Shown here piece after piece: positions 9,547 to 56,365 of a stretch of DNA of 62,939 nt. A program made the position numbers and the translations under genes. Origin of the DNA: a virus. Taxonomy: Duplodnaviria > Caudoviricetes. Position 1 is the first letter of the stretch. The number at the start of each line of letters is the position of its first letter. The stretch lies in IMG/VR virus record IMGVR_UViG_3300005573_000097, positions 1 to 62,939 of that record; one strand, 5' to 3'. Below the pieces are notes generated by a model. It was not told where the DNA came from and ran no database searches. It worked only from the letters and a program-made list of their open reading frames with translations.

Positions 9547-9620
9547 AGGGCTTAGTCAAGCAAATAAGATTCTATGAATGAAAATTGATTCATCAATCTT
9601 GGGGAGCTTCCTATTAAAAA

Positions 9621-10715: not shown

Positions 10716-10769
10716 TTTTTAAACTTTTAATTTGTTTGGAAAACTTAAACTTTAATTTTAGGAGACCTT

Positions 10770-11648: not shown

Positions 11649-11668
11649 TCTATTAAGGAGACTTTAGT

Positions 11669-12046: not shown

Positions 12047-13062
12047 TGCCTGAACCAACGAGTAGAGATCTACACATTGATAAATTGTTATCTAATGTTA
12101 GTATTCAATATATGAATGCACCTAGTGCTTACGTTTCTGATCAAGTATTTCCTGTTCTTAATGTTGACAAACAATCTGATCAGATTGCCATCTACCGTAC
12201 TGAGGATATGTTTCGTGACGAAGCTCAAGTTAGGGCTCCTTTAACTGAATCAGCTGGTGGTGGATTTGGTGTTGCAACACCATCTAGTTACTTCTGTCCT
12301 GAGTATGGTTATCATCAGGATATTGCTCAAGATGATATTTATAACACCGATGATCCATTCAATCTTGAGGCTGATGCAACTCGTATTGTAACAGAGAAAT
12401 TTCGGATTAAAAGAGAATCTCTTTTTGGAAATACTTATTTCAAAACAGGAGTTTGGGATCTTGATGTAACTGGAGTTACAGATACTCCTGGTGAAGATGA
12501 ATTTAAATGTTGGGATCTAAGTGGTTCAACTCCTGTTGATGATGTTGAAGGATTGAAATCTCAAGTTCATCTTAGGACAGGCCAGGAACCCAATGTCCTT
12601 CTTGTTTCTAAGAGAGTTCATAAGGCTCTTAAAACTCATCCAACTATTAAGGATCTTTACAAGTATACAACTCCAGGAGCAAAGATTACAGAAAAGCTTT
12701 TAGCTGAAATTTTTGAAGTTGATAAATATCTCGTAGCCTCAGCTTTGATTGCCAATAATGCTGAGGGCGCTGCTACTGATCTTGGTTACCTTCTCAATCA
12801 GTATGGAGCTTTACTTGTATATGCTGCTCCTAATCCATCTAAATATCAAATTACTGGAGGTTATACCATTCGATGGAATCGTCCCCAGTTTGGTGGGACT
12901 GGTGGAGAAAAATTTCCTGCTACTATCGCTAGATTAGATATGCCAACTATTAAAGCTGTTAGAATAGAAGGTAGTTTTTATGAGACACAGAAGCTGATAT
13001 GTCCTGGTTGTGGAGTCTTCATTAATAATGCTATTGCTGCAGGGAGAACCCTTACCTCGTAA
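12046..13062 (+). CDS. major capsid protein (HK97 fold)
   Basis: 338 aa; HIDKLLSNVSIQY, DQVFP, PNVLLV, LKTHP; gene position. Confidence 0.88.
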   Translation: MPEPTSRDLHIDKLLSNVSIQYMNAPSAYVSDQVFPVLNVDKQSDQIAIYRTEDMFRDEAQVRAPLTESAGGGFGVATPSSYFCPEYGYHQDIAQDDIYNTDDPFNLEADATRIVTEKFRIKRESLFGNTYFKTGVWDLDVTGVTDTPGEDEFKCWDLSGSTPVDDVEGLKSQVHLRTGQEPNVLLVSKRVHKALKTHPTIKDLYKYTTPGAKITEKLLAEIFEVDKYLVASALIANNAEGAATDLGYLLNQYGALLVYAAPNPSKYQITGGYTIRWNRPQFGGTGGEKFPATIARLDMPTIKAVRIEGSFYETQKLICPGCGVFINNAIAAGRTLTS

Positions 13063-13076
13063 TTTTGGAGACTAAT

Positions 13077-13472
13077 ATGAGTTTCACATACGATCCAGAA
13101 AGTTTAGATGTTGAATTGAATAGAATTCGTCTCGAACTTGGAGACACTGATAAGAATAATCCTTACCTTCTCGATGAAGAAATTGCAATAATCCAGAGTG
13201 AGTTCTCCTCCCTCAACTCTAGATTGGCGAAATGTTGTATTGTTATTGCAAATAAATTATCCGAGAAGAAGGTTAAAATTGGTGACTACAGCGAAGATTC
13301 AGCATCACTTGTAAATCATTTCAAATCTATGGCTATTGAATATGGACATCTAACTTCTGGATCGTATCCTTTTTCTTCATCTTTAACTATTTCAGGAAAG
13401 GAAGCTTTTACATTAGATACTGATATTGTTCAACCTCGATTTTCAAGAGGTATGCATGACAACAATCAATAA
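13077..13472 (+). CDS. head-tail adaptor
   Basis: IRLELGDTD...LLDEEI motif; follows the capsid gene; ATG chosen after GGAG. Confidence 0.7.
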   Translation: MSFTYDPESLDVELNRIRLELGDTDKNNPYLLDEEIAIIQSEFSSLNSRLAKCCIVIANKLSEKKVKIGDYSEDSASLVNHFKSMAIEYGHLTSGSYPFSSSLTISGKEAFTLDTDIVQPRFSRGMHDNNQ

Positions 13473-13767
13473 AAGATTATTAAAATCAAAAGTTAATATT
13501 TTACATGTTACAAAGAACTCTTCTGGAAGAACTGTAACTGGAACTGATCTAGACGTCCCTTGTCGAATCTCTGAATATAAAAGAATTATTAGAGATGAGA
13601 CTGGGGATCATCTAGTTTGTAAAACGCAGTTATTCTTCCATCCAGATGATGCTCCTTCTCTTTCTGATGAGATATCAATTAATGGGAAGGTTTACCAAAT
13701 TGAATCAATCAATACCCTAAGAGATGGATTTGGTATTATTCATCATTATGAGGTATTTTTAAAATGA
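13456..13767 (+). CDS. head closure/stopper protein
   Basis: Beta-rich ~100 aa ending HHYEVFL; synteny. Confidence 0.65.
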   Translation: MTTINKRLLKSKVNILHVTKNSSGRTVTGTDLDVPCRISEYKRIIRDETGDHLVCKTQLFFHPDDAPSLSDEISINGKVYQIESINTLRDGFGIIHHYEVFLK

Positions 13768-14255
13768 GTTGGACAGACATCTCTCCTCCAAATCAACCTT
13801 TTAAAATTAGATTTGATACTAATTCTTTCAAGAGAGAATTGATTCATTTAGTATCAAAAGAAGTTGCTCAATCTCTTGGTGCTGTGGATAAGGCTATGGG
13901 ACAATTTTTACAGGATTGTATAACAGCTGTTCCTAAATGTCCTGTCGATAGTGGAGATTTGATAGGGAGTCATAAAGTTATACCTGCAAAAAGATCTGGT
14001 GATCGGACTGAAGGAACTCTTAGAGTTGAAAAACCTTATGCAGCATCTCTTCATGAAGGAATAACTCCTAAAGGAAAACCTTATCAATTTCATACCCCAG
14101 ATACAGGAAGTCATTGGGTTATTTCTAAACTGCTTATGTATGGAGAGAACTACCTTAGAATTATCTCATCTGGAATTCTTACTTCAAGTAATGAAACTTC
14201 TTATACATCAATACTAAATGACTTTTTAGGAAAATCTGGATTTTCTGAGGACTGA
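13764..14255 (+). CDS. HK97 gp10-like neck/tail completion protein
   Basis: PVDSGDLIGS and PYAASLHEG motifs. Confidence 0.7.
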   Translation: MSWTDISPPNQPFKIRFDTNSFKRELIHLVSKEVAQSLGAVDKAMGQFLQDCITAVPKCPVDSGDLIGSHKVIPAKRSGDRTEGTLRVEKPYAASLHEGITPKGKPYQFHTPDTGSHWVISKLLMYGENYLRIISSGILTSSNETSYTSILNDFLGKSGFSED

Positions 14256-14257
14256 TT

Positions 14258-14629
14258 ATGTTATTAACATCATTAGCATCTTATATCTCAACTCAATTAT
14301 CTCTAGTTTTGGATGTCTCTATCTTTATTGGAGTGGTTCCTCTAGATGTTGATGTAAAACATATGTTAATCAGAAGCATTGCTGGTGGTACTGATTCAGA
14401 GTCTGGATTGATAAGACAACCAATTCAAATTCTTTCTTATGATTTATCATACAAGGATTCAGAAGATTTCTCTTTATCTATTCATAACTTAATATCAAAT
14501 AAAAAAGGATTTCCTGGAGTTACTGGGATTTCCTATTGTTCCTGTATTGGGCGACCTCATTTAATTTTTCAAAATGAAAGGTTTTATATATTTTCAGCAA
14601 CTTATCTTCTTAGTGGATTATTATCTTAA
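14258..14629 (+). CDS. tail terminator / minor capsid family protein
   Basis: IFIG..P and IQILS pattern; synteny. Confidence 0.6.
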   Translation: MLLTSLASYISTQLSLVLDVSIFIGVVPLDVDVKHMLIRSIAGGTDSESGLIRQPIQILSYDLSYKDSEDFSLSIHNLISNKKGFPGVTGISYCSCIGRPHLIFQNERFYIFSATYLLSGLLS

Positions 14630-14639
14630 AAGGTTGACT

Positions 14640-14891
14640 ATGACCCAACAAATAAAAAATTTTTGGATAAATCTTGATTGGTGGATAAAATTTTATACAG
14701 CTATAATTTCCACAATTTTTATGCTGTGGGGATTTATAGTTCGTCCATATGTAAATGCCGAGGTTCAAAAAATTCGACAGAACGATTCTTTAGATAAGAG
14801 AATTGATTTAATCCAGAAAGATTTTAATAATATGAAAGAGAATATAAAAGATATAAAAGATCTTGTGGATAAGTTATACTATAAGAGATAA
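14640..14891 (+). CDS. single-TM coiled-coil membrane protein (holin-like)
   Basis: One hydrophobic helix followed by a charged coiled coil. Confidence 0.45.
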   Translation: MTQQIKNFWINLDWWIKFYTAIISTIFMLWGFIVRPYVNAEVQKIRQNDSLDKRIDLIQKDFNNMKENIKDIKDLVDKLYYKR

Positions 14892-14903
14892 GGAGTAATT
14901 AAT

Positions 14904-15386
14904 ATGGAATCTTTTCATTCTAGATCTGAAGATAAAAATATTTTGAATGATAGAATTGTTCTTGGTGAAACAGATTTGCCAGATACTACACCAGTTCCCA
15001 CAACCCTTGTCACTTCCATTTCATCGGAATTTGATACAATCAACGTTAGTAAGATGAACAAGGGCGGCATAACGGTAGCACACAACGCCATTACGGCTAC
15101 GGCTACCAGCGCAGAAATTGACTGCCGTGGATTTAATGCTGGAGAAATAAACATCGAGATAATATCCGGTTCTGGAACATGGCAGATAGATCTCCTGGGT
15201 TGCCCAGTTTCAGGAGGTACATTTGTACCTCTATATGACGCATACAATGCTCTGATTTCTTTTACAGGTATTAATTCTTCAAGATCGATAGCTATTCCAA
15301 TTATTTCGTCGAATTTTATAAAGATCGTAGCCACTGAAGTGGTTGATGGGGCTACGGTAACCATTCGTTTTACCCCGATGGTGTAA
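14904..15386 (+). CDS. putative virion beta-sandwich protein
   Basis: 160 aa, beta-rich, AGGAG RBS. Confidence 0.6.
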   Translation: MESFHSRSEDKNILNDRIVLGETDLPDTTPVPTTLVTSISSEFDTINVSKMNKGGITVAHNAITATATSAEIDCRGFNAGEINIEIISGSGTWQIDLLGCPVSGGTFVPLYDAYNALISFTGINSSRSIAIPIISSNFIKIVATEVVDGATVTIRFTPMV

Positions 15387-15388
15387 AT

Positions 15389-16264
15389 ATGTTTCATAAA
15401 AGAAGAATAGGAATAGAAAGTTTTTCCCTTTCCCATACTGCCGGAACATTGAACATAACAGTCACAAACGGAAAAAATACGCGTTGGATATTGCCGGATG
15501 GGACTATCGTTGCAGGTAACACCGTGAATAATACGGTCAGCACAGGGAAAACAATTCTACTTTGTTCGAATCTGGCGGATAATAGCATTCAGTTTAATGT
15601 ATTAAGTAACCCGACTATTGTAACGTTTTCCCTTAAGGATTTTAGAAAGAGGTTAACATACTATTTCAGACTATACAACTGTTCCAACATCACAGGTTCT
15701 CTTGTTGATCTTGGAGCGAAGATAACGTATTACCTCGATTTAAATTATTGTCCCAACATCACTGGTTCCCTTGCTGATCTTGGAGCGAAGCTAACGTATT
15801 ATCTCAATTTGAACAGTTGCTCCAACATCACTGGTTCTCTTGCTGATCTTGGAGCGAAGATAACGTATTACCTCAACCTATACAACTGTTCCAACATCAC
15901 AGGTTCTCTAGCTGATCTTGGAGCAAAGTTGACGAATACTCTCATTTTAAGGTCTTGTTCCAACATCACCGGTTCCTTAGCAGATCTTGGTGGGAAGATA
16001 ACGTATTATTTGAGCCTGAGTAATTGTTCATTAATTACCGGCGTATATACCCCTGTAGGGGATGGAATCCCGACCTATACGTATCTGGACTACACTGGAT
16101 TATCCACCGCAGACATGGATTCTACGCTAATCAACTATGCGGCAACTACCAAAGCAAATGGGACATTTAGGGCGTATGAGAAAACCAGATCTTCTGCCAG
16201 TGATGATGCGATTTCCACTTTGGCCGGAAGAGGATGGACTATCAATGGATTAACTAAAGTATAG
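15389..16264 (+). CDS. leucine-rich-repeat protein
   Basis: About five and a half 23-aa (69-nt) repeats of the type CSNITGSLADLGAKITYYLNLYN. Confidence 0.85.
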   Translation: MFHKRRIGIESFSLSHTAGTLNITVTNGKNTRWILPDGTIVAGNTVNNTVSTGKTILLCSNLADNSIQFNVLSNPTIVTFSLKDFRKRLTYYFRLYNCSNITGSLVDLGAKITYYLDLNYCPNITGSLADLGAKLTYYLNLNSCSNITGSLADLGAKITYYLNLYNCSNITGSLADLGAKLTNTLILRSCSNITGSLADLGGKITYYLSLSNCSLITGVYTPVGDGIPTYTYLDYTGLSTADMDSTLINYAATTKANGTFRAYEKTRSSASDDAISTLAGRGWTINGLTKV

Positions 16265-16273
16265 GAGAAAAAT

Positions 16274-16447
16274 ATGGCAAAATACATAAAAATAGTGGAT
16301 TATCATGGTCAAGACCTTGCTAAGGATGAAACAATCTTGATGAGTTTAGCTGAATTTAATGCTGGTGGGAAAGATCTGAAAGGAGTTCCCATTTGTATTA
16401 CACCATCCGGCGAAGAGCCAACTGAAGATCCAAATTTTGATATATAG
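16274..16447 (+). CDS. hypothetical 57-aa protein (not in the ORF track)
   Basis: AGGAG RBS; MAKYIKIVDYHGQ...PNFDI, TAG. Confidence 0.6.
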   Translation: MAKYIKIVDYHGQDLAKDETILMSLAEFNAGGKDLKGVPICITPSGEEPTEDPNFDI

Positions 16448-16488
16448 AGAAAATCATTGAATGATGGATCTTCGAGAGGAGGCATATC

Positions 16489-17952
16489 GTGCCACGATTA
16501 CAATTACCGCAAAACTATCTGCTTAACCAGGGAACTGTAGTAGAAAATTTCAGCAATTTTGCTGGTTGGACAAATGAAACACCGTCAGCGGGGACGATAA
16601 GTGCGGATACTGTCCATTACAGGGGAACGCAGGGAGTAAAATTCACTGCCAACGCTGGTCAATCCTTAACAGCTTATAAAAATGTATCCCTTAACCTCAA
16701 GGAGAGTGGAAGTATATTGAGATTATGGGTATACATCCCAGATCCTTTATATGTGAGCAGTTTTAATCTGGAGATATACTCAAACAATACCTGGTATCAT
16801 ACATGGAAAAGTTTTGATTGCAGTGCACGCCGGTCAGTCATAGGATGGAACTGTCTGACTGTTCATAAAGATTCAATGGGAAGAGACGCCCAGTTTGACT
16901 GGGCAAGCGTCACGAAAATCAGGCTTACCTTTACTGCACTTGCAGGCAGGATAAGCGAGGTTACCTTTGGTGAAATCTCCCTGGGAACTGAGTCTTTATC
17001 TCGAATCATGATCCAGTTTGATGACGCCATAAGCACAGAATATACCAAAGGGTTTGATTATCTCTACAACCAAATGGGGAAAATGGGCACTATCTGGGTA
17101 GTACCTGCCCTGGTTGGGGGCAGCGGATATATGACGAAATCGAACCTGGATATAGTGTATTCTGCCGGCTGGGCATTAGGTAATCATACCTACAGTCATT
17201 CCACCAGGACGAGAATAATTGTTTCTGCGGCGAATACAACAACATCATTGACAATAGGGGCAACACCTTATTCAGTATCGGGAACTGGCATGGATGCGGC
17301 ACAGATTGCTGCTGCACTGGCTGCCGCAATTGGAAGCATTGCTCACGATCTGGGTGATGGATCTTTCTGGCTTGATTCTGGAACCGTAAGCAGTCTGGTA
17401 AATTGTTCGGCCAGTCAAACGGGAATAACTTATTTAGATAAAGACGGTCAAAAGGCTGATATCCTGGCCTGCTCACAATGGCTGATTGCTAACGGCTACA
17501 TAAGAGCCGCGTATCATGTGGCCTGGCCTTCAGGAGTTTCAAACGCTGATACATATAAGGCTATGGATGAACTTGGCATGCTGACGGGAAGGGGCATCGT
17601 TTCCCGTGTTGAACCTGCTCCTGCGGGAGAAAGATATCAGCTTATGGGGCCTCTTGTTACGTGGGGAGATAAGGCAACGCATCCAACTCAACCTGAAATA
17701 ACCGTTGATACGGTAAAATCCTGGATTGATACAGCGGTTTCAACTGGATCTTCATTATCCCTCATATTTCATCATTTGGCAGATGATGTTGCCCATATCA
17801 CGAATACTACAGATTATCTGTTCAGTGATTTCAAGACAATTGTAGATTATGCCATTGCGCGGGGATTGAAATTTGTAACCATAGACGAATGGTACAATGG
17901 ATTGACCAACCCGCGATATAGATCGGTGCCTCTGAGTAGGACGGCGGTGTAA
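16489..17952 (+). CDS. jelly-roll domain + NodB/CE4 polysaccharide deacetylase
   Basis: IQFDDA, LGNHTYSH, AWPSG and LIFHH motifs; GGAGG RBS with GTG start. Confidence 0.82.
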   Translation: MPRLQLPQNYLLNQGTVVENFSNFAGWTNETPSAGTISADTVHYRGTQGVKFTANAGQSLTAYKNVSLNLKESGSILRLWVYIPDPLYVSSFNLEIYSNNTWYHTWKSFDCSARRSVIGWNCLTVHKDSMGRDAQFDWASVTKIRLTFTALAGRISEVTFGEISLGTESLSRIMIQFDDAISTEYTKGFDYLYNQMGKMGTIWVVPALVGGSGYMTKSNLDIVYSAGWALGNHTYSHSTRTRIIVSAANTTTSLTIGATPYSVSGTGMDAAQIAAALAAAIGSIAHDLGDGSFWLDSGTVSSLVNCSASQTGITYLDKDGQKADILACSQWLIANGYIRAAYHVAWPSGVSNADTYKAMDELGMLTGRGIVSRVEPAPAGERYQLMGPLVTWGDKATHPTQPEITVDTVKSWIDTAVSTGSSLSLIFHHLADDVAHITNTTDYLFSDFKTIVDYAIARGLKFVTIDEWYNGLTNPRYRSVPLSRTAV

Positions 17953-18037
17953 GGATGGCTGTAATCATAAATTCCAATATTACCAGATTTAATGGTTTTC
18001 TGCCCACAACTAAAGAAATTCATAAAGGAGGTGTATT

Positions 18038-18421
18038 TTGGCAAGAACACCTTTTATCTCTGTCTCATCAAAATACAAACCATTAACACCAAATTTAAAT
18101 AATTTGGAAAAGAAAATTGTAGATGAAAATTATGATAAACCATTATTTATATATAATGGTAGTATTCCTATTGAAACTAATTATTTTAATTTTAAAAATT
18201 ATAAAGAGATCTTTAACGATCAAGAACTTCTTAATGCTAAAGCTTTTATCTTTTCAGAACTTAATATTCATCTCCTTTCTTTTGGAATCAACTATAATAT
18301 TCCAAATATATGGATTCATAAAACTATAAAACCTGAAAATTGGAATAATCTTTTTAGATTAATTATCATAGGAGAGCAAAATAATATTGAGGTTTGGAGA
18401 TCTATATGGAAACTCGTGTAG
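18038..18421 (+). CDS. hypothetical protein
   Basis: TTG start with AGGAGG RBS; overlaps the next gene. Confidence 0.5.
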   Translation: MARTPFISVSSKYKPLTPNLNNLEKKIVDENYDKPLFIYNGSIPIETNYFNFKNYKEIFNDQELLNAKAFIFSELNIHLLSFGINYNIPNIWIHKTIKPENWNNLFRLIIIGEQNNIEVWRSIWKLV

Positions 18422-20067
18422 GGATTTCTTTCTTTAACACAATGGGAAATCTGATTTTTCTTTCTGCTGCTGTTAAAGTTTTGAGAAACTGGGGATATCA
18501 AAACATTGATTTAATCACTGATTTAAAATCCCCTGGAATTACAAAAAATCAAAGAAATGTCTTGATAGATTTAGGCTCTAAAATTTTTGATAAGGTTCTT
18601 GATAAAGCTGATTGTAAGATTGAAAACTATCAAAAGATCTACTCATGTGGATTTTCAAAGGTTCCTCATTTTGGAAAGGATGTTAAAACTATAAATTGGA
18701 AAGAGACGGGAATTCATGAAATTCTCCTCTATCTAAATATGATTGGAGCAACATGGAATGATTTTGATGGATATATCTTTCCAATTTCAGAGTCTCCAAT
18801 CCTCCCAGAAAAGAAATCTCTTCGGATTGGATTAGCGAATGCTCATGGAACTGAACAGGCTAAAAAGAAATCTTGGAGTAAATTTCCAGAATTGTCTAAA
18901 CAACTTATTAAAATGGGCTTTGAAACTGTTCTTGTTGGATTAGATGGAGAATTAGAAGGATGTGAATTTACCTATGACTATCGTGGAAAATGTTCCATTT
19001 ATGAAACAGCAAAAGTTATTCAACAATGTGATGTAATGATTGCAACATCAACGGGACTTGGTATTATCTCCGATGTTGTTAAAACTCCATTGGTTATGAT
19101 AGATGGCCCAATGCCAGTAACTAAGTTCCATCCTATACAGACTAACTTTACTAATGTTAGAAAATACATTTCTTGTGCTCCTTGTGCGTATACTCAACTT
19201 TGGAATTATTGTACATCTATAAGATGTATGGATCTTATTCAACCTAAAGATGTTATAGAATCTTTAATTAAATTTCTTCCTAAGATGGGGGAGCCTAGAT
19301 GTATAGAGACTCTAGTATCAACTAGAGATTCATATAAACCATCTAAAAAAGAAATTCTTTTAAAGAGATCTATAGCTTATATGGTATCTGTAAAAGATCG
19401 TTTTGAAATGACTAAAAATTTCTTTGAATCTTTTAAAGATAGTAAACCATTACCTGGATCACTTTTCATTTTGAATGATAATAGTAATGATCCAAGAATT
19501 TTAGGATATCTGGATAAATTAAAAATTAAAGATATTGATATTGTTATAAAAAATGCTGATATTTCAAAAGTAAAATATAATGTAGATAGTATTCATTGTT
19601 GTAATGAATTAATCAAAATGGCTAGAGATTCTAAAATTGATTTTGATTATTATCTGTTTCAAGATTCTGATGCTATCTTCAAACAATATTGGATTCAGAA
19701 AATGATTCTTCAGTATGAAGAAGTTTCAAAGAGTCAAAAACTCTGGGGAGTTTCTGGATTTAATAATTCTCTTAATGATAAATATTTCCCTGATAGTACT
19801 TCAACAGATATTTATGAAAATGAATTTGGAAAGTATCGATTAAGAGGAAGTCTTTTATTTAATATTTTAATTCCAAAAGAAATCTTTAATGGTGATTTTG
19901 GAACCTACAATCCATTAGCTCATTCTTCAGATTTATCAAAGTCTGAAGAAATGATAAATAAAGGTTATTGTGGATTGATCACAATACCAAGTTTAGTAGA
20001 ACATATTGGAGCATATTCATCTTTACTTCGTTTTGGAAGTGTTGGTACAACATCTTCAGATTTTTAA
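18406..20067 (+). CDS. glycosyltransferase fusion (GT9 heptosyltransferase-like + GT2-like)
   Basis: N-half MGNLI, KKSWSKF, QQCDVMIATSTG, ISCAPC; C-half LNDNSND, FQDSD, PSLVEHIG. Confidence 0.82.
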   Translation: METRVGISFFNTMGNLIFLSAAVKVLRNWGYQNIDLITDLKSPGITKNQRNVLIDLGSKIFDKVLDKADCKIENYQKIYSCGFSKVPHFGKDVKTINWKETGIHEILLYLNMIGATWNDFDGYIFPISESPILPEKKSLRIGLANAHGTEQAKKKSWSKFPELSKQLIKMGFETVLVGLDGELEGCEFTYDYRGKCSIYETAKVIQQCDVMIATSTGLGIISDVVKTPLVMIDGPMPVTKFHPIQTNFTNVRKYISCAPCAYTQLWNYCTSIRCMDLIQPKDVIESLIKFLPKMGEPRCIETLVSTRDSYKPSKKEILLKRSIAYMVSVKDRFEMTKNFFESFKDSKPLPGSLFILNDNSNDPRILGYLDKLKIKDIDIVIKNADISKVKYNVDSIHCCNELIKMARDSKIDFDYYLFQDSDAIFKQYWIQKMILQYEEVSKSQKLWGVSGFNNSLNDKYFPDSTSTDIYENEFGKYRLRGSLLFNILIPKEIFNGDFGTYNPLAHSSDLSKSEEMINKGYCGLITIPSLVEHIGAYSSLLRFGSVGTTSSDF

Positions 20068-24478: not shown

Positions 24479-25056
24479 GTGCTTTTCCAGATATTTCATC
24501 AGTACCACATATATCTCCAGTTGGAAAGACAATTAGGACAAAATCAATAATTAAGGCATATGAAGATGGCTCTGAATCGGCTAAACAGAAGTGGCTATAT
24601 CCAAAGAGAAATTTCAAACTCAGTTACTCAAATATTTCAAAAGAAGAAGCATTAATTTTGTGGCAGATGTTTATCAATTGTGGAGGTCAATATCTTCCAT
24701 TTTCTTTCTTTGATTATACTTCTAATATCTATACAAAAGAATATGTTGGAGTTGGAGATGGAGTGACAACACAATTTAGCCTTCCCTCTAAATCTGCCAT
24801 AAATAGAACTTTATATCTTGATAACTTAATTCAATCAGAATCAACTAACTGGACATTTACTTCAAATGGTGGAAGCGACTCGGAAGATTTGTGCACTTTC
24901 TCTTCAGCACCTTTAGCTGGATCAATTATAACTTTCTCTTTTACTGGATATCTAAAAGTTAGATGTAGATTTGCAAATGATAATTTTGACTATGATACCT
25001 TTTATAAGATTTTAAATACAACAGGAATAGAATTAAGGGGATTACTTAACTCATGA
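24475..25056 (+). CDS. distal tail protein (DUF2460-like)
   Basis: GVGDGVTTQFSL, FSSAP..G, VRCRF motifs. Confidence 0.72.
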   Translation: MSAFPDISSVPHISPVGKTIRTKSIIKAYEDGSESAKQKWLYPKRNFKLSYSNISKEEALILWQMFINCGGQYLPFSFFDYTSNIYTKEYVGVGDGVTTQFSLPSKSAINRTLYLDNLIQSESTNWTFTSNGGSDSEDLCTFSSAPLAGSIITFSFTGYLKVRCRFANDNFDYDTFYKILNTTGIELRGLLNS

Positions 25057-26315
25057 GAGTTCTAACTGCAAAATCAATAAATGAATTAGGACTTGATAGA
25101 TTTAGAACTTTTCTCCTTTTGGAAATCTATTTTGAGGGAAACTATTATAGATATACGAATTGTGATATCCCTCTTGTCTATCTTGGAAATGTTTATGAAT
25201 CAAGATCCTTTTCTATTGATAATGTATCCTCAAGTATGGATCAAACTGTTGATAGTGTACAAATTAAACTTGCTGAGTTGAATTCAGCTCTTGGAATTGC
25301 TATTAAGGGATCTGAAATTACTGATTATAAAAATCCTCAAAATGCTCAAGTTACGATTTACTGTGCTGTTGTTTATGATAATTTTTCTTGTAATGCATAT
25401 TATTCTAATGCAACAAGATTTAGAATTTCTAAAGAAGAATTAAATAATGTATATGAAGGTATGTCAATAGTTGCATGCTGTGGTTCTGACGGAAATAAAT
25501 ATGGTACTATCTCTAGTATAACACAATATACAAACTGTTTAAAAATTTTAAGAAATGGTATCAATAATCCAGGATTACGGCAAACGTTAAATTTTGAAGT
25601 TGGTTCATCTTATAAAGTATTTTTTAATTTCAAAAAGATTAATGCAACTAGTCTTTGCATTTCAATTGCAGGTCATGCAGTATATGCAAATCCTGATGTA
25701 GATTGGAGTTCAACTCCTTTAAGTTTTACCCATACTCCAACATCAAGTTCAGAAAGTTTATTATTATATGTAGTGACCAATATAGGTACTCAAGGTATGT
25801 ATCTTGATAGTATCGAAGTTAGAAAAATAATAGGTAGTTCTTATGGTCCTAATATAGTTAAAAATGGTTATTTTGATATAGATTTATCATCATGGACCAT
25901 AATAAATTCTGCAAATGCATCAATAGCATCAGGAGGTCTTATTGGAGATGTTTTTATTGAACTTAGTGATTCTGATGATTTAACTAATAATTTATCTTAT
26001 ATAAAAAATAATTTTGAATCTTTTATTATTTTTAGGGGTTTCATTAGTAAATGGTCAATGACAGAAGATGAACTTGAGCTTACAGTAGTATCATCTCTTG
26101 CTAGATGGAATCAAAGAACTCTCTATCGTCATCCTGCAAATTGTCGTTGGAGACAATTTGGGCCTTCTTCTCCCTGTGGATATCCTCTTTATCAAACAAC
26201 AACTTGTGATAGGTCTTATGAAAGATGTTTAGAGCTTGGAAATCAAGCAAATTTTGGTGGATTTAGATTCCTTCCATCGATAGAAAATAAAGAAGTTCTG
26301 TGGGGCCCAAAATGA
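25053..26315 (+). CDS. tail tip/hub protein (lambda gpL/DUF2163-like) with an inserted carbohydrate-binding-like module
   Basis: C-terminal Cys cluster CRW...CGY...CDRSYERC...NFGGF. Confidence 0.75.
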   Translation: MRVLTAKSINELGLDRFRTFLLLEIYFEGNYYRYTNCDIPLVYLGNVYESRSFSIDNVSSSMDQTVDSVQIKLAELNSALGIAIKGSEITDYKNPQNAQVTIYCAVVYDNFSCNAYYSNATRFRISKEELNNVYEGMSIVACCGSDGNKYGTISSITQYTNCLKILRNGINNPGLRQTLNFEVGSSYKVFFNFKKINATSLCISIAGHAVYANPDVDWSSTPLSFTHTPTSSSESLLLYVVTNIGTQGMYLDSIEVRKIIGSSYGPNIVKNGYFDIDLSSWTIINSANASIASGGLIGDVFIELSDSDDLTNNLSYIKNNFESFIIFRGFISKWSMTEDELELTVVSSLARWNQRTLYRHPANCRWRQFGPSSPCGYPLYQTTTCDRSYERCLELGNQANFGGFRFLPSIENKEVLWGPK

Positions 26316-29749: not shown

Positions 29750-30487
29750 ATGGCATACATACCAAACATTCCATCTGTTGGAAATCCTGGATTGTCGGAT
29801 ATTCCAAAAATAGCAGATAATTTTTCCGCTTTAAGATGTAATGAAATTGGCCCTGCAGAACCATCAAATCTTGTTGCTGGTATGTTTTGGATAGATACTA
29901 CAACAAATATACTGAAGTTGTTATTATCAACAAATCCCAAAACATGGTTGTCTGTCATGAATTTCTCTGCTGCTGGATGTCCAAAAGCTCATATTGATAC
30001 AGATATAAGTGTCGGTGGAACAGCACATGGATTGACTAATGGACATGGAGGTAAAATTGATGCTGATAAACTTGATGGAAAACATGTAACTGAATTGTTA
30101 ATACCTAATTATTATTTAGGTAATAATGGTATTTCCCCATATGCTTCTAGTGATTGTGAACGTATTGCATATGCTGAAGGTATAATTAAAGAGTTTAAAC
30201 TGAATATCTTACCATCAACCACAATAAAAACTTATTTTGAAATGAAATCTATGAATGCTGATTATGCCGTAATAGGACAAATTTATAGAAATGGAGTAGC
30301 TGTTGGAACACTTAGAACAACATTTAGTACATCTTATGTTGGATACACGGAAAATATTCCTAATTGTAGTCCTAACGATTTAATTCAATTATATGTAAAC
30401 GTTGCAGGAGCTTGGTGGAATAATAATGTTGCAGTTAGAAATTTTCGTTTATTAGGAACAACTAATATTGAAGTTACTAAGGATTAA
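29750..30487 (+). CDS. tail fibre / receptor-binding protein
   Basis: N-terminal P...GMFWIDT, IDADKLDGKH fibre motif, C-terminal beta domain. Confidence 0.75.
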   Translation: MAYIPNIPSVGNPGLSDIPKIADNFSALRCNEIGPAEPSNLVAGMFWIDTTTNILKLLLSTNPKTWLSVMNFSAAGCPKAHIDTDISVGGTAHGLTNGHGGKIDADKLDGKHVTELLIPNYYLGNNGISPYASSDCERIAYAEGIIKEFKLNILPSTTIKTYFEMKSMNADYAVIGQIYRNGVAVGTLRTTFSTSYVGYTENIPNCSPNDLIQLYVNVAGAWWNNNVAVRNFRLLGTTNIEVTKD

Positions 30488-30501
30488 ATTTAGGATACTC
30501 T

Positions 30502-30882
30502 ATGATAAAACTTAAAAGAATTATAAGAGAAGATATAACTTTTGGAGTTTTAATTAAAGATGATAGAATTCCAATTTGTTTAACATTGGAACTTCCTTGG
30601 AAAGAAAATAAGGAAAATATTTCTTGCATTCCAGAAGGTAAATATCAATGTAAACTTATAAGTTCTGAAAAATTTAAAGAAGCTTATCATGTTTTAAATG
30701 TTAAAGATAGAAGTGGAATTTTAATTCATTCTGGAAACACCATTTCTGATAGCCAGGGTTGTATTATTCTAGGAAAGGAATTTGGAATACTTAATGGAAA
30801 ACTTGCAGTGTTAAAGTCAATTTCTGCATTTTATCTTTTAAAAGATTTTGTTGGAACCGAATTTGAATTAGAAATTTGCTAG
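30502..30882 (+). CDS. DUF5675-family protein (putative endolysin)
   Basis: CLTLELPW, SCIPEGKY, ILIHSGN..DSQGCIILG. Confidence 0.8.
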   Translation: MIKLKRIIREDITFGVLIKDDRIPICLTLELPWKENKENISCIPEGKYQCKLISSEKFKEAYHVLNVKDRSGILIHSGNTISDSQGCIILGKEFGILNGKLAVLKSISAFYLLKDFVGTEFELEIC

Positions 30883-30884
30883 AA

Positions 30885-30918
30885 AAAAGCCAGCTAATCT
30901 TATGAAAAGCTGGCTTTT
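30885..30918. terminator. bidirectional terminator between the convergent arms
   Basis: AAAAGCCAGCT...AGCTGGCTTTT. Confidence 0.8.
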
Positions 30919-30942
30919 GTTTATTACATCTTGAAATAAAAA

Positions 30943-31857
30943 TCACCAAGGTTGAATTAGCATAGGGTTTGTAATTTGATCCATTTCAAGATCTTTCTGA
31001 ACACTTAATTTTCCAAGGATTCTAAAGTTTTTGAAAGCAGCTCTTGTAGCGCCACTATCTGTCATTGCCCATAATTGAATTTCATCTCCATCATGAATAT
31101 TCTTAATAATACATTCCCTTTGTGTACCTCCACGATCACAACTATCTGCAAAAAGATTAGATGAACAAGTATGTTCACCTGTTAGAATTAATGATTGATC
31201 AACAGTTATACGATCTGAAAGATCTACATAACTTTTAGCCCTATCAAGATTCTTGGCTATGTATACAAAAATTCCAGTACCTCCTGCGTGACTAAAGTTT
31301 TTACTACCCATTTTCCAACCTATTCTAAGATTGGAAGCTGGACATTTATTAAGTTTAATAAATTTAATACAATGATAATTACCATCATTGTAACTTCTAA
31401 TCTCCTCTTTATCATTAGCATACCAAACATCTCTGCCATTACAGTCAATGTAGACATTAGAAGATCTTGAACAATAATCTTCAATAAGAGATCTAATTTG
31501 ATTCCACTGAAGAGATGTAAAATTAGTTCCAACAGTACCATATCCATTAATACCTGAAGATGATGAATTTGATCCAGAGGATCTTGATGGATCAAAACCT
31601 AAGACATTATCGGCAAAATCTTTTACAGCATTTGAGAGCCACGAATAACGAACTGTTGAATCTGATTGTTGAATCATAACAGGAATGTAAACTATGGAGT
31701 CATTCTTAGAATAATCTATAGGATTATAAACTGGATTATATATCTGATAGGCTTGATAATAATTTTGTAAATTTGAATAACTACTGAGAGTTTGAGCTTG
31801 AGAAATATTAAGATTTATTGTTACCAACAGTATTATTGTTATTAAGATCTTTTTCAT
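30943..31857 (-). CDS. secreted protein with a tail-fibre-tip-like C-terminal domain
   Basis: Sec signal MKKILITIILLVTINLNISQA; C-terminus aligns by eye with 29750..30487. Confidence 0.75.
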   Translation of the reverse strand: MKKILITIILLVTINLNISQAQTLSSYSNLQNYYQAYQIYNPVYNPIDYSKNDSIVYIPVMIQQSDSTVRYSWLSNAVKDFADNVLGFDPSRSSGSNSSSSGINGYGTVGTNFTSLQWNQIRSLIEDYCSRSSNVYIDCNGRDVWYANDKEEIRSYNDGNYHCIKFIKLNKCPASNLRIGWKMGSKNFSHAGGTGIFVYIAKNLDRAKSYVDLSDRITVDQSLILTGEHTCSSNLFADSCDRGGTQRECIIKNIHDGDEIQLWAMTDSGATRAAFKNFRILGKLSVQKDLEMDQITNPMLIQPW

Positions 31858-31946
31858 TCTTTTTCTCCATCATTTGATTCTAAAATATCTAAACGATCAT
31901 TGATCATATTAAGTTGAACTATGAGTTGATAGTTTATTCATTAGAA

Positions 31947-32462
31947 TTATTCCAATCCATAGAGATATTCTAATCTACAATTTTTAAAATACTTGCAGGA
32001 TAAGCATTCTTGAGACGTAGTTTGATGAGCAGGTAAAGGTGGTTCTATTGTCAATCCTGAAAAATATTTAAATCTGGTGCAATTTAAAATAGAATTTAAT
32101 TCAACATTGTCGAGTCTCTCTTTATCTCTACAAAATTTCATAGATTCAAGAAGAATTAAATAGACGATGACATCTCCAATCTTTTCCTGCCAGAACTCCA
32201 TTGGATGTTCAATATCTTTTTCAAGATCATTAATGGCATCTATGATAGAGATCCATTGTTTATTCATTAATCCTAAGAGATAGGATTCAGCAGTTTCTCC
32301 TTTTGTAATGCAGCCTAAATTAAAGTTGTGAAATCTGTCTCCAGATTGACTGCAATATTCCTGTCCTTTGAACATTAAGAGATTTCTAATCTTGTCAAGA
32401 CGAGATTTAAAGATGTTTTCTATAAAGATATGATCAGTTCCATTGATAGTTTTATTCATCAA
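31947..32462 (-). CDS. helical nucleotide-modification-associated / dNTP pyrophosphatase-like protein
   Basis: KGQEY...DRFHNF...K....EKIGDVIVYLILL pattern. Confidence 0.55.
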   Translation of the reverse strand: MMNKTINGTDHIFIENIFKSRLDKIRNLLMFKGQEYCSQSGDRFHNFNLGCITKGETAESYLLGLMNKQWISIIDAINDLEKDIEHPMEFWQEKIGDVIVYLILLESMKFCRDKERLDNVELNSILNCTRFKYFSGLTIEPPLPAHQTTSQECLSCKYFKNCRLEYLYGLE

Positions 32463-32650
32463 TCTTCCTCCTCAATGGTTATAGCATCTTCGGGACAACT
32501 TTCAATGCAATCTCTACAGTTATTGCAATTCTCTGAAGCAACCACTGAAATTTCACAAGAGGTAAAATCAAAGTAGAAAACATTTTCACAACAGCTTCTT
32601 TCACAATCACCACAGTTGGTACATTTGTCAACATTAATTGAAACTAACAT
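32459..32650 (-). CDS. 2x[4Fe-4S] ferredoxin
   Basis: CTNCGDCERSC and CNNCRDCIESCP. Confidence 0.88.
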   Translation of the reverse strand: MLVSINVDKCTNCGDCERSCCENVFYFDFTSCEISVVASENCNNCRDCIESCPEDAITIEEED

Positions 32651-36999: not shown

Positions 37000-39402
37000 T
37001 TATTTTAATCCAAGATGTTTTGGAACATCAATACCCCTCTTAATAAGAGAATCAACTTCAATTTCCAACTCTTCTGTTTGAACATCTTTCATTTCTAACC
37101 AATTCATTCCAAAGCCAATTTCTATTGGAATCTCATGCCAGATATTAAACAGTTGGAATCTTCCTTGTTTGTAGGCCCAAATTAACATTAAAAAAGATGC
37201 TTCAAGTTTCTTTTCAGGAACAGAGATATTCAGTCCATCATGAGTATCCATAAGAATTGTGAAATAAGGATCGATACTCTGATTAGCTATTTTGTTAACA
37301 TCAGTAACAGTTGACTGCGGGATGAATGCATAGCCTTTCTTATAAGTTTTCCTATCAAGACGACCGAAAAAAATCATTCTTCTACCAAAAGGATTTACTA
37401 ACATTCTTGTTCGATTAATTTGTTCCTCAACTTCTTTATGAAAGACATTTACTATCCCAGGATAGGTGTTATGATAGAGAGTATAGATTTCAGTAGCTGC
37501 TTCCTTAGACATTTTAGACTCAATGGCAAGTTGATTAATTCCCATTCCATAATTACCACCATGTCCACATGCTTTTACATGGATATATTGCTCTGTCTCC
37601 TTATAGGCTTTAACTTTCTCTTTAGTTGACAGGTCGGGACCATAGATGTTTTTGGCATTCTCCAGGTGAAACATTCCAGATTCAGCAGCATCTATCATTT
37701 TTTGATCTCTTGTCAACCAGGCGACAACCCTTGCTTCAGCTTGTTTCTGATCACATTTCACCATAATTTCCCCTTCTTCAGGAAGAAAGAATCTTCTAGC
37801 ATTACCTCTTTTAACATTTTGGAGATTCATTCCTGTTTTGGAGAATGTCTTTTTTGACTCTAATCTACCAAGTTTCGACTTTGATAAACCATACTTAGTT
37901 CTGATTCTACCATCTTCGATATTCTCTTCTGAGAAGAGAGACGATTCCTTTGCAAGGGTTCGATACTCGATAATTAAATATGGAATATCAGAATTATATT
38001 TCAAAGCCATCTTTTGGAGATTCTCTTTATCCATAGAAATGGAATTGGTTCCTCTTTTGTGATAGCCATCCATTCCCATCTTATCGAGAAGAAGATCTTT
38101 AACTTGCTTGGGACTGTTTGGTTTGAAATCAGAACCATATTTTTCATCTAATTCTTTCTTAATTAAAGCCATTCTTTCTTTTGAAAATTTCTGATGATCT
38201 GCAAGATTCTTCATATCAATTCTAACACCACGGAGATTCATCTTGAAGAGTGGCTCATATAGATTAACATAGAGTTTCTTGTAAACATCATAGAGGTTAG
38301 CTTCCCGAAGTTCAATCTCCATTTCTTCAATACACCATAAGGCAGCAATACAATCTAAAGCATTATATCTCCAATGTTCCATCTCTTTTCCAACTCTAAG
38401 AGTAGAACCTTTCATTGGACCTTCATCAGAATCCCTTTCATCTGATTTGTAATATTCAAGATTGGTATAGATGGAAGTTATTACATCTAGTTTATGTGGA
38501 AGATCAGAGTAGAGGCAGTGATGCATGAGCATTGGATCAAATTCTGGAATTTTAAGTTGAATCCCATACTGGAGCATTACCTCAATATCGTACATAAAAT
38601 TCTGATTGGCAAAATTCAGCTTTGGAAGGACTCGCATCATTTCCTTCCAAAGAATAACTTCCTCCTCCTCAGTCCAGTAATTTGTTCGATCTCCATAGAA
38701 GAAAGGAATGCAAATGGCATCAGTTCTACTCCAGCCAAGGCCAATACAAGAGAGAAGTCCATGAGGAGTTTCCACGTCAATAGTAACTATTCTTGGATTA
38801 GTTTCTTCAAGATAACGAAGAGTTTCAATAACTTTGTTAAGAGATGGCTTAAGAATGAAGTTAAATTGAGGCCATTGAAAATTCTGGATATTATCAAGAA
38901 TATTTTTTGCCTTAGACAGGTCGAAAGAGATCAAAGGCCAGCATTCATAATTGTAATTCATAGTAGATGGATGGTAAGTTGGAATTACAATTAGATTCTG
39001 ATTAATTTGTGGAATTGGATGCATAACACTTCCCCTGAAATGGGAGATACCAGATCGACCAGTAACAGCTTGAAGGGCATAATCTCCCAGAGGAATTAAG
39101 ATTTTAGCATTCTCATAACTGTTAAGTTCTGGAATAAGTTTCCTTTCCCAATTTCTAATCTCCTCCATAGAGAGGTTGGCCATCTTAAATCCTGGAGCAG
39201 CCTTTTTTGATAAATTAGTGATTCTCAAATCTGATCTTGAAATTCCTACTTTTCGAAGACAGAAATCTAAGTGATATCCAGATGGGCCAACAAATGGTTT
39301 ATTTTGTTGAATTTCTTGAGATGCAGGAGCTTCTCCAATGAGAATCATTTCGGCATCTAGAGGTCCAACTGCTGGAATTTCTTTTGATGATTGAATTATC
39401 AT
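37000..39402 (-). CDS. polA: family A DNA polymerase with an N-terminal uracil-DNA glycosylase (family 4)-like domain and 3'-5' exonuclease
   Basis: GEAP...PFVGPSG...YHPS; DVET, NFMYD, YNALD; DQKQAEAR, K...NYGMG, THD. Confidence 0.92.
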   Translation of the reverse strand: MIIQSSKEIPAVGPLDAEMILIGEAPASQEIQQNKPFVGPSGYHLDFCLRKVGISRSDLRITNLSKKAAPGFKMANLSMEEIRNWERKLIPELNSYENAKILIPLGDYALQAVTGRSGISHFRGSVMHPIPQINQNLIVIPTYHPSTMNYNYECWPLISFDLSKAKNILDNIQNFQWPQFNFILKPSLNKVIETLRYLEETNPRIVTIDVETPHGLLSCIGLGWSRTDAICIPFFYGDRTNYWTEEEEVILWKEMMRVLPKLNFANQNFMYDIEVMLQYGIQLKIPEFDPMLMHHCLYSDLPHKLDVITSIYTNLEYYKSDERDSDEGPMKGSTLRVGKEMEHWRYNALDCIAALWCIEEMEIELREANLYDVYKKLYVNLYEPLFKMNLRGVRIDMKNLADHQKFSKERMALIKKELDEKYGSDFKPNSPKQVKDLLLDKMGMDGYHKRGTNSISMDKENLQKMALKYNSDIPYLIIEYRTLAKESSLFSEENIEDGRIRTKYGLSKSKLGRLESKKTFSKTGMNLQNVKRGNARRFFLPEEGEIMVKCDQKQAEARVVAWLTRDQKMIDAAESGMFHLENAKNIYGPDLSTKEKVKAYKETEQYIHVKACGHGGNYGMGINQLAIESKMSKEAATEIYTLYHNTYPGIVNVFHKEVEEQINRTRMLVNPFGRRMIFFGRLDRKTYKKGYAFIPQSTVTDVNKIANQSIDPYFTILMDTHDGLNISVPEKKLEASFLMLIWAYKQGRFQLFNIWHEIPIEIGFGMNWLEMKDVQTEELEIEVDSLIKRGIDVPKHLGLK

Positions 39403-42582: not shown

Positions 42583-43128
42583 TTAAAGATTTCTAATTAA
42601 TTCTGGTGGGGTTGCTAATTTCAAGGGTTGATCTGAAAGTAGATACTCTCCAGGCCATTCTACATAAACATCTTCAGTAGTAAAGAAAAATATAGCATTT
42701 CCGTTACTGCCATAGCTTCCATCAAGATCGGGACTTTCTACAACGTGAGAATCCCATCTTCCTGGCACATCTGTAAGTATGGTTTGTTGCGTACAGGTAA
42801 GCATGGAATTGACACTTGATACCTTTCCTTTTACGGTATAAAAAGCCATTACTTTACCATAGCTTATAAGATAGATATAGCTTATCTTATTAGCCACATT
42901 AAATCTTTCAAGACGTTTAACAAGATTTCGTCTCTCCTGAGAATCTGTTAATTTTGGAGGTGGTATAATTTTTGATAGTCTTAAAAAATTATCAGCAGTT
43001 ATAGTTTGATCATTATCTTGCATTTTACTTACTTGTCTTACACTTTTAGATCCATTATCACATCCAGGTTGGAATACTCCTATAAGAAAGCAAAACATTA
43101 TTAAAACTCCTGATATAAATTTTTTCAT
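42583..43128 (-). CDS. putative lipoprotein
   Basis: Signal peptide ending PGC; GKVSSVNS, DLDGSYG, FFFTT. Confidence 0.7.
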   Translation of the reverse strand: MKKFISGVLIMFCFLIGVFQPGCDNGSKSVRQVSKMQDNDQTITADNFLRLSKIIPPPKLTDSQERRNLVKRLERFNVANKISYIYLISYGKVMAFYTVKGKVSSVNSMLTCTQQTILTDVPGRWDSHVVESPDLDGSYGSNGNAIFFFTTEDVYVEWPGEYLLSDQPLKLATPPELIRNL

Positions 43129-43140
43129 CTTAGGTCTCCT

Positions 43141-43605
43141 TTAATTAATTTCTGGTGGTATGTCTTTCCCCATAAAAAATTTACGATTCAACATTTTAGC
43201 TCTTGCATTATACTGCGCTGTTAAATCTTGACGATAGTTTTTCAAACCTGTTAAAACTGAAGATAAACGACTCGATTCATTCTTATCTTCAAATGTCCAT
43301 TTATTACGTGATCCAGCCGATTCATTAAAATTTTTGATATCCTCTTGAGCTATAGATATCTTAATATCAGTTGCTTGTATATCATGATAAGTATTCTTAA
43401 ACCATTCATAATTTGAAATTACATTATCAGCATCAAGAGTTTTCTCAATAATCTTTGCCGGTTGACTCATTAAGTTTATTCCATAATTGATTCCTCCTAT
43501 TAGGATTCCAAGTCCCATTAAAGGTAAAATAATGATAAGAAAAACTCTCCAAATTGTCCATCTTGCTTCTTTTGATACATTATTAAATTCATCTTGATAA
43601 CTCAT
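43141..43605 (-). CDS. membrane-anchored coiled-coil protein
   Basis: One TM helix; NYEWF and QYNA. Confidence 0.7.
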   Translation of the reverse strand: MSYQDEFNNVSKEARWTIWRVFLIIILPLMGLGILIGGINYGINLMSQPAKIIEKTLDADNVISNYEWFKNTYHDIQATDIKISIAQEDIKNFNESAGSRNKWTFEDKNESSRLSSVLTGLKNYRQDLTAQYNARAKMLNRKFFMGKDIPPEIN

Positions 43606-56355: not shown

Positions 56356-56365
56356 TCCTTCTCAA

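Follow-up and report, generated by a model that had tools for sequence, protein, structure and literature searches.

A predicted exported protein of a tailed phage carries a domain homologous to the tip of a putative tail fiber encoded in the same genome

Two neighboring, convergent genes of a tailed-phage genome, here called A and B, encode proteins that share a homologous C-terminal domain of about 150 residues, a relationship that profile comparisons indicate to be real, and the product of gene B also begins with a leader of the Sec/signal peptidase I (SPI) type, which we regard as established or nearly so from the translated gene. The genome is the linear IMG/VR virus record IMGVR_UViG_3300005573_000097 (Duplodnaviria; Caudoviricetes; estimated completeness 62%), and its full 62,939 bases, hereafter the window, were analyzed. 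We propose that B is an exported phage envelope factor built from fiber-like adhesin modules; its makeup is a solid observation, and its function is a proposal. In this proposal, to which we assign a probability of roughly 0.35, exported B binds the envelope through a lectin-like domain and alters the surface that phages meet, a form of lytic conversion or exclusion.

A homologous domain in two convergent genes

A direct BLASTP comparison of A with B gave 25.4 bits and an E value of 9e-4 (for a single comparison), with 39 of 157 positions identical (25%) and 24% gaps between residues 120–241 of A and 134–287 of B. This evidence is borderline by itself, and it is the profile comparisons that, at the level of sequence, settle homology. 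The local alignment scored 64, a value attained by 1 of 2,000 shuffles of full-length B (z = 5.8) and by none of 2,000 shuffles of the C-terminal part (z = 7.9). When a B family of two sequences (B and its database relative P0002; relatives are given as P numbers) was compared with an A family of eight sequences that had been collected with A alone, hhalign returned a probability of 97.1% and E = 6.7e-11 over 117 columns, aligning residues 136–285 of B with 118–239 of A. Hidden Markov models (HMMs) agreed in both directions: among 520 stop-to-stop frames of the window, a model built from A only found B at E = 1.1e-9 (next frame, 1.9), and one built from B only found A at E = 4.4e-5 (next frame, 0.9). 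No third copy of the domain was detected in the window with a profile that held both copies. Against 1.84 billion representatives, the B profile matched seven proteins at E ≤ 1e-3, namely P0001, P0002, and five short proteins of 159–206 residues (E = 1.7e-5 to 4.9e-4) that carry the fiber-tip motifs ..KEI.L...P...LKIYFE.., ..YRNG..VGT.., ..GD.LQLY.., and ..RNFRILG. The first-pass annotation of this DNA had described both open reading frames (ORFs), and our translations agree with the peptides it quoted; its in-order alignment of the two C-termini is borne out by BLASTP, the shuffles, the reciprocal HMMs, and the hhalign comparison that it had named as a check.

Structure of the exported-type protein

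Signal peptides were judged by inspection together with a simple hydrophobicity script. The leader of B consists of MKK, 13 hydrophobic residues (ILITIILLVTINL), and then SQA↓QT, which by inspection has the Sec/SPI layout of a charged n-region, an h-region, and small residues at positions -3 and -1; its Kyte–Doolittle maximum over 12 residues is 2.77, and the first site that obeys the -3/-1 rule follows residue 21. There is no Cys in the leader and hence no lipobox, the first Cys of B being residue 129, and no recognizable secretion tag was seen in the protein. In a crude hydrophobicity screen of the 199 window ORFs of at least 50 residues, B was the only one with an SPI-type leader, the other leader candidates being one lipoprotein-like and one membrane-anchored protein. 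A gap of 89 nucleotides separates gene B from its upstream gene.

The N-terminal region of mature B (residues 22–90) was modeled at a predicted local distance difference test (pLDDT) score below 50; it has no relatives beyond the B family and is unrelated to the anchor domain of A, and the patches kept in P0002 are YIP and RYSW.S.A...D..L..DP. A Ser-rich linker follows, at the position of which P0002 has a longer Ser/Asn run. The fiber-like module begins with a neck helix (residues 118–131, LQWNQIRSLIEDY) that aligns with the N-termini of the short fiber-like proteins P0012, P0013, and P0015 (their ..DWNKL.. helix), and residues 113–304 as a whole align with entire short fiber-like proteins such as P0013 and P0015. 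Two insertions lie within the jelly roll of B. All seven Cys of B are in the mature part; mature P0002 has six Cys, and in three places the Cys of the two proteins align. A has four Cys, and the 15 family members that lack a hydrophobic N-terminus have 0–5.

The leader of P0002 is likewise composed of MKK, 16 hydrophobic residues, and CSA↓Q. Leader, linker, and Cys-richness are therefore kept between B and P0002 at an identity of only 34–41%, which argues that export of B is probably a selected feature. The Sec-type leader (judged by inspection), the Ser linker, and the extra Cys (seven versus four) to which the first-pass annotation had drawn attention thus hold up and recur in P0002. The assignment of B by that annotation to the replication arm and not the virion arm also holds up, on the basis of the strand and of a two-way terminator described below.

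Fold of the shared domain

AlphaFold2 models of A and B gave a beta jelly roll for the shared domain. The B model was confident at residues 133–291 (pLDDT mostly 70–90) and the A model at residues 131–236 (pLDDT up to 94; 68–94 over residues 131–230), with the small N-terminal beta domain of A also confident; the underlying alignments held 16 and 15 sequences and each included the other family, which limits the independence of the two models. Likeness of fold was judged from the ranked Protein Data Bank (PDB) matches of each model.

A wide VIA-align search, which does not depend on Foldseek, returned the identical four top chains for A and B: 6yf6_B, the EclA C-terminal sugar-binding domain (Z = 9.2 for B, with a root-mean-square deviation of 2.8 Å and 104 residues aligned, and 10.8 for A); 7ay3_A, a family 36 carbohydrate-binding module (CBM36; 9.0 for B and 10.7 for A); 1ux7_A, also CBM36 (8.8 and 10.6); and 2dcj_A, XynJ (8.7 and 10.5). 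Across these chains Z ranged from 8.7 to 10.8, with deviations of 2.2–2.8 Å and 98–104 residues aligned, values to be read against best Z scores of 7–8 that are common for models without clear relatives. Other best matches were CBM35/6, the TNF-like lectin PLTL, and 8okw, the tip of the Bdellovibrio fiber Bd2734 (Z = 7.4 for B and 8.9 for A), and C1q/TNF-like trimers scored slightly below (Z = 8.3–8.6 for A). Because the same four chains rank top for both models, we consider the two domains to have the same fold, as the relationship claimed in the first-pass annotation presupposed, and the models suggest that this fold is of a kind (CBM36/EclA/TNF-like) that usually binds sugars.

Foldseek also found jelly rolls for both A and B, including CBMs and the cyanophage short-tail-fiber domains 9k09_A and 8ke9_A. 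The jelly rolls returned by a BFVD fold search were all of a generic kind, for example those of capsids and collagen-repeat fibers, and in an ESM Atlas search the best feature score was 0.83 and structure matches fell under the threshold. The CBM36 and EclA C-terminal jelly rolls are the best fold matches of A and B, but have no sequence relationship to them: the family profile had no PDB sequence match at E ≤ 1, and no Pfam CBM family matched either protein at E ≤ 1. The domain family had no match in Pfam (E ≤ 1), PHROGs (E ≤ 0.1), or NCBIfam (E ≤ 0.1), and so far as these searches reach, it is a previously undescribed family that occurs on fibers and in exported-type proteins.

Origin of the exported-type module

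We placed the domain of B among its relatives in a maximum-likelihood tree of 19 rows and 183 retained columns, from which P0001 and P0003 were omitted as near-identical to B and A, respectively. The A-family rows (A and P0004–P0007) formed a group with support of 90/87 (unstarred), with P0016 just outside it. The starred pairing of B and P0002 sat on a long branch, of 1.04 plus 1.0 changes per column, and was placed with P0013/P0015 and P0012, in the half of the tree opposite the A family. The path from A to B amounted to 3.69 changes per column, and tips encoded on other contigs are closer to the tip of A than B is. When the two families were constrained to a single clade, 9.1 log-likelihood units were lost (approximately unbiased test, p-AU = 0.063), and a constraint that joined A and P0004 with B and P0002 lost 13.8 (p-AU = 0.0565); a sister relation of the two families is thus unfavored, though not formally rejected.

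Of 35 conserved columns, defined by agreement of at least 60% of the 17 non-B rows, B keeps 19 (25 when similar residues are counted) and P0002 keeps 21 (27). B retains DGD.IQLW, NFRILG, and KEI.LNK.P at the two ends of the domain; its losses are concentrated beside the two insertions, in the part of the fiber tip that is otherwise best conserved (YFE, IYRNG, and VGT). Of the family signature YFE ... IYRNG..VGT ... TE ... GD.xQLY ... NFRxLG, B lacks YFE, YRNG, and VGT.

Judged from the tree and these columns, the module of B is an old and much-changed relative of the tip of fiber A, not a recent copy, and would have been either recruited long ago and then fast-changing, or derived from the short fiber of another phage. 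Given either ancient recruitment or a foreign short-fiber origin, a ligand shared by A and B is less to be expected. The first-pass annotation had proposed that the phage exports a copy of its own receptor-binding domain to occupy the receptor. The long branch of B apart from the A family, the path of 3.69, and the change at 16 of the 35 tip columns speak against an own-tip copy, and this part of the interpretation is not supported; what survives of it is an exported-type, Cys-rich homolog with the same fold, encoded in the replication arm.

Distribution of the domain

In the databases searched, full-length relatives of B were confined to P0001 (99% identical) and P0002 (34% identical by BLASTP and 41% in the alignment), and a search of 5.8 billion proteins with B retained 2 of 1,074 candidates. 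Neither A nor B had a match among 50,697 phage records. Pattern scans with B gave 2 and 56 pattern matches in viral contigs and 94 in metagenome contigs, and a scan of genome contigs with a P0002 pattern gave 55, none of which was confirmed. A scan of viral contigs with A found only the contig L002, which shares the N-terminal motif alone; a scan with P0016 led to the viral contig L005 (30.7 kb, 60% complete), in which the tail genes follow the order seen here and a single tip domain occurs; a scan with P0018 gave 32 loci that match in the collar motif only; and a scan with P0011 gave no loci. When the tip HMM was run over 34 loci, it matched L005 only, the 33 other viral loci sharing just N-terminal or collar parts. 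A metagenome scan with the A-family alignment yielded 10 loci that likewise match only in N-terminal or collar parts of the fibers, and all of them lack both the tip domain and B.

Strongly hydrophobic N-termini were present in 4 of 19 distinct family members (B, P0002, P0011, and P0018), with Kyte–Doolittle 12-residue maxima of 2.77–3.73 versus at most 1.71 in the other 15. By inspection, these leader-bearing members occupy three separate places in the tree: P0011 is sister to the leaderless P0017 (support 95/92), and P0018 sits in the half of the tree opposite P0011. In P0018 (308 residues), the leader resembles that of a lipoprotein (..LLLIVCSAC..), and the protein also has two collar repeats of DKLDGQHGSYY and the tip domain. 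Both P0011 and P0018 may be cellular rather than phage proteins.

Genomic context

The genes of the virion occupy the plus strand between about 5.1 and 30.9 kb of the window. By Pfam and PHROG matches, their products include a Mu-type portal and a prohead protease, as well as a tail module of the gene transfer agent/lambda type in which DUF2460, a phiJL001 gp84-like hub, NlpC/P60, and a 1006-residue J-like protein were recognized (Table 1). The minus strand between 30.9 and about 53 kb holds replication and nucleotide genes, among them RNase H, an exonuclease, a DUF3987 protein that is possibly a primase/helicase, Pol A with a uracil-DNA-glycosylase (UDG)-family domain, a DNA methylase, an NAD-ligase, and ThyX. 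Isolated phages are all distant, the best polymerase and J-protein matches being about 25–27% identical. No integrase was found among the Pfam matches of the window proteins, and the genome looks lytic-type in its gene content.

The two-way intrinsic terminator separates the convergent arms, and the replication arm ends with gene B. A simple terminator scan missed this hairpin, which was found by folding against shuffles (-18.9 kcal/mol on the plus strand and -19.3 kcal/mol on the minus strand; z = -4.3 and -3.7; for neither strand did any of 200 shuffles reach this stability). A promoter scan of the window gave 16 sites, compared with 23.9 expected.

Gene A is preceded by AAGGAG at a distance of 8 nucleotides. 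Its product comprises an N-terminal anchor domain (residues ~1–75), a collar with the GHGGKIDADKLDGKH motif, and the C-terminal jelly-roll tip; it had eight relatives at E ≤ 0.01, the window's own copy counted, and no family match in Pfam, PHROGs, or NCBIfam. We call A a fiber because it follows the J-like gene and because its ortholog P0016 is placed alike, after the J-like gene of L005, and these positions fit a probable role as a tail fiber. B does not resemble a virion fiber in this sense: it is on the opposite strand with replication genes, it has a leader, and its N-terminus is unlike the anchor domain of A.

The J-like protein matched Pfam Phage-tail_3 (1.8e-6) and PHROG 31, ‘central tail fiber J’ (7.9e-49), and its best matches in isolates were tail proteins of Pelagibacter and Roseobacter phages at about 25% identity. 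Because the isolates nearest in this protein infect diderms, a diderm host is likely. A Shine–Dalgarno core lies within 20 nucleotides of the start in 52 of 71 window genes, compared with 0.146 of random positions, and such cores in most genes are unlike Bacteroidota. On this account a Bacteroidota host is not favored, although the A↓Q cleavage sites fit the ‘Q-rule’ for leader cleavage sites that one study gives for that phylum (PMC5837995). Porphyromonas phages encode leader-bearing proteins with no assigned function that obey the Bacteroidetes Q-rule, according to a further paper (PMC10367356).

The DUF5675 protein, the final product of the virion arm, matched Pfam PF18925 (8.2e-31) and PHROG 1501 (4.3e-26) and had a weak match to Tlde1_dom (0.0022, under the cut-off). 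It may be Tlde1-like, perhaps a peptidoglycan L,D-peptidase that serves as a lysin or a virion-associated enzyme. No holin or spanin was recognized next to its gene in the ORF list of the window.

In the tail module, a domain of about 180 residues occurs both in the hub-like protein (25053–26315, plus strand; residues 136–314) and in the J-like protein (residues 693–865), at 28% identity (E = 6e-9). This is another instance of a binding-type domain used twice in the tail tip.

Table 1. Positions of genes and sequence features in the window
Feature	Position	Strand	Remarks
Methyltransferase	7681–8313	+	
Rhamnosyl-transferase-like protein	8617–9414	+	weak match
DegT/DnrJ aminotransferase	9621–10715	+	4.6e-81
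Polysaccharide-deacetylase-like protein	16489–17952	+	
GT9 glycosyltransferase-like protein	18394–20067	+	
J-like central tail-tip/host-specificity protein, 1006 residues	26715–29735	+	directly upstream of gene A
Gene A, 245 residues	29750–30487	+	ORF; start 15 nucleotides after the J-like gene
Tip domain of A, residues 118–239	30101–30466	+	part homologous to B; hhalign range
DUF5675 protein, 126 residues	30502–30882	+	follows gene A; final gene of virion arm
Two-way intrinsic terminator	30880–30930	both	GCCAGC stem, A-run before, T-run after
Gene B, 304 residues	30943–31857	-	ORF; convergent with A, final gene of replication arm
Fiber-like module of B, residues 113–285	31003–31521	-	neck helix and jelly roll, two insertions, 7 Cys
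Ser-rich linker of B, residues 91–102	31552–31587	-	SRSSGSNSSSSG; from sequence
Tyr/Asn/Gln-rich N-terminal region of mature B, residues 22–90	31588–31794	-	one predicted helix, residues 72–86
Predicted signal peptide of B, residues 1–21	31795–31857	-	MKK, hydrophobic stretch, SQA↓Q
Shine–Dalgarno GGAG of B	31865–31868	-	7 nucleotides before the ATG; from sequence
Predicted membrane-anchored protein, 154 residues	within 42583–43605	-	predicted transmembrane stretch, residues ~18–40
Lipoprotein-like protein, 181 residues	within 42583–43605	-	MKKFISGVLIMFCFLIGVFQPGC...

Proposed function and alternatives

In the mechanism that we propose, B would be expressed from the replication arm in the course of infection, cross the cytoplasmic membrane by export, and fold there with disulfides, and its lectin-like domain would bind a glycan or another envelope structure of the infected cell. 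The surface altered in this way could reduce adsorption or entry of further phages, or reduce the loss of progeny on debris; the ligand of B would not have to be the ligand of fiber A. We favor an envelope-binding role because the best fold matches are sugar-binding modules and lectins, because B adjoins the genes of receptor recognition while lying on the other arm, and because 4 of the 19 family members have hydrophobic leaders, in three places of the tree. A role in exclusion is suggested because known receptor blockers are likewise exported envelope proteins made early, and receptor masking by B is plausible. A broader generalization, that phages repeatedly convert fiber-tip modules to exported envelope binders that interfere with receptor use, with B as one case and P0002, P0011, and P0018 as independent ones, would amount to a counterpart in bacterial viruses of Env-mediated receptor interference by retroviruses; it is conceivable but doubtful.

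Several points weigh against a role of B in surface alteration. If the host is a diderm, the Sec/SPI route would leave B in the periplasm, unable to cover an outer receptor without further export, and one-to-one masking of an abundant surface glycan would be costly. The ligand of B may have no connection to any phage receptor. The B family amounts to three sequences in the databases searched (B, P0001, and P0002), and L005, the only other contig with an ortholog of A, has neither B nor a second tip gene at 60% completeness. To these points are added the long-branch position of B and P0002 away from the A family, the concentration of the losses of B in the core of the tip, and the incomplete independence of the two structural models.

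The narrower idea that B acts as a decoy, occupying the very receptor bound by fiber A, is in keeping with the domain and fold that the two proteins have in common, with the adjacency of their genes, and with the residues kept at both ends of the domain. We nevertheless consider it unlikely, given the identity of 25%, the A–B path of 3.69 changes per column, a free tree in which B is not sister to A (p-AU = 0.063 for the enforced clade), and the change at 16 of 35 conserved tip columns, in YFE/IYRNG/VGT, together with two insertions; nor do A and B co-occur in the single relative available (L005), and an SPI-processed protein in which no lipobox or secretion tag was seen would stop in the periplasm of a diderm. 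That last property would suit a trap in the periplasm, in which B binds an incoming phage part or an envelope protein and blocks DNA entry, not adsorption. T4 Spackle blocks DNA entry from the periplasm, and fiber-like modules can contact proteins, but the fold matches of B are mostly sugar binders and nothing specific speaks for a trap, which we rate as very improbable.

An accessory role in lysis, with exported B binding the wall or envelope and aiding or timing lysis, is quite unlikely in our estimation. Phage lysis modules commonly contain exported proteins, gene B lies 60 nucleotides from the end of the DUF5675/Tlde1-like gene, which encodes a candidate peptidoglycan peptidase, and that gene has no recognized holin or spanin beside it; against this, B is on the opposite strand, in a separate transcription unit with a terminator between, and shows no likeness to known lysis proteins in Pfam, PHROGs, or NCBIfam. 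Alternatively, B might be secreted to the benefit of the host, as an adhesin or a binder of polysaccharides through which the infected cell would change how it attaches, aggregates, or captures nutrients. Such a role would accord with the CBM-like fold of B and with the mosaic adhesive trimer (MAT) fibers of Bdellovibrio, which are exported fiber-like adhesins (PMC10769870) and of which the Bd2734 tip (8okw) is among our fold matches. The Z values, however, are within the range reached by common arrangements, and because the genome looks lytic-type, with no integrase found among the Pfam matches, little time would be left for a benefit to the host; we judge such a role to be distinctly unlikely. 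Finally, B would be retained rather than exported if it were a second virion fiber or accessory, or if its leader were a membrane anchor during assembly. The match of residues 113–304 to whole short fiber-like proteins such as P0013 and the hydrophobic N-termini of P0011 and P0018 are compatible with this, but the typical n-h-c layout with SQA↓Q, seven Cys versus 0–5, and the location in the replication arm make it highly improbable.

Comparison with known systems

The closest functional parallels to an exclusion role of B are the siphophage receptor blockers T5 Llp, T1/phi80 Cor, and Rtp45, which are likewise phage-encoded and exported to the envelope (export being predicted for B). To our knowledge, all of these well-studied blockers are small lipoproteins unrelated to the receptor-binding protein of the phage, acting from the periplasmic face on an outer-membrane protein, and llp adjoins the receptor-binding gene in T5. 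B differs from them in having 304 residues and no lipobox, in deriving from a fiber-tip module, and in looking, as modeled, like a glycan binder. According to the respective papers, Llp is an exported envelope protein that is made early and stops adsorption to infected cells and debris (PMC9586334), and Rtp45 is an exported early envelope protein that prevents adsorption to infected cells or debris (PMC12685063). B itself matched no described exclusion family in Pfam (E ≤ 1), PHROGs (E ≤ 0.1), or NCBIfam (E ≤ 0.1), and a full-text search, outside which most subscription journals lie, found no published description of a phage exclusion protein derived from a tail-fiber tip.

In receptor interference by retroviral Env-derived genes (e.g., Fv4-type host genes), a cell-made copy of Env blocks the receptor, a logic that equals the decoy idea for B; as it concerns viruses of eukaryotes, it is an analogy only. 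The MAT fibers are a structural parallel, being exported, displayed on the surface, and phage-fiber-like with swappable adhesive tips, some of which are jelly-roll/TNF-like with disulfides (PMC10769870), and the Bd2734 tip matches the folds of both A and B. The MAT fibers are, however, encoded by the bacterium, serve predation, and are 600–1100 residues long, whereas B is short, phage-encoded, and located beside a phage fiber gene.

If our proposal for B is correct, B would be an exclusion factor recruited from the receptor-recognition toolkit of the phage, and leader-bearing paralogs of tail tips would offer a sequence handle on exclusion genes and receptor-binding domains in uncultured phages. 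It would also link phage biology to the principle of receptor interference known from retroviruses.

Other features of the window

Sugar-modifying genes are present inside the virion arm (7681–20067, plus strand; Table 1). Their products could glycosylate virion proteins or change the surface sugars of the host, the latter of which bears on receptor biology. In the replication arm, two adjacent genes at 42583–43605 (minus strand) encode predicted envelope proteins, one membrane-anchored and one lipoprotein-like; neither had an NCBIfam match, and together they could act like spanins or be additional modifiers of the envelope. A 63-residue 2x[4Fe-4S] ferredoxin-like protein is encoded in the same arm at 32459–32650 (minus strand; Fer4_6, 4.9e-12), two genes upstream of B, and the family A DNA polymerase at 37000–39402 (minus strand) carries its UDG-superfamily domain at the N-terminus. 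A stretch of higher G+C at 54353–57685 (minus strand) holds an array of paralogous genes, two of them with Imm5-like immunity domains; the genes at 54353–54991 and 56366–57034 are 54% identical over their first 118 residues.

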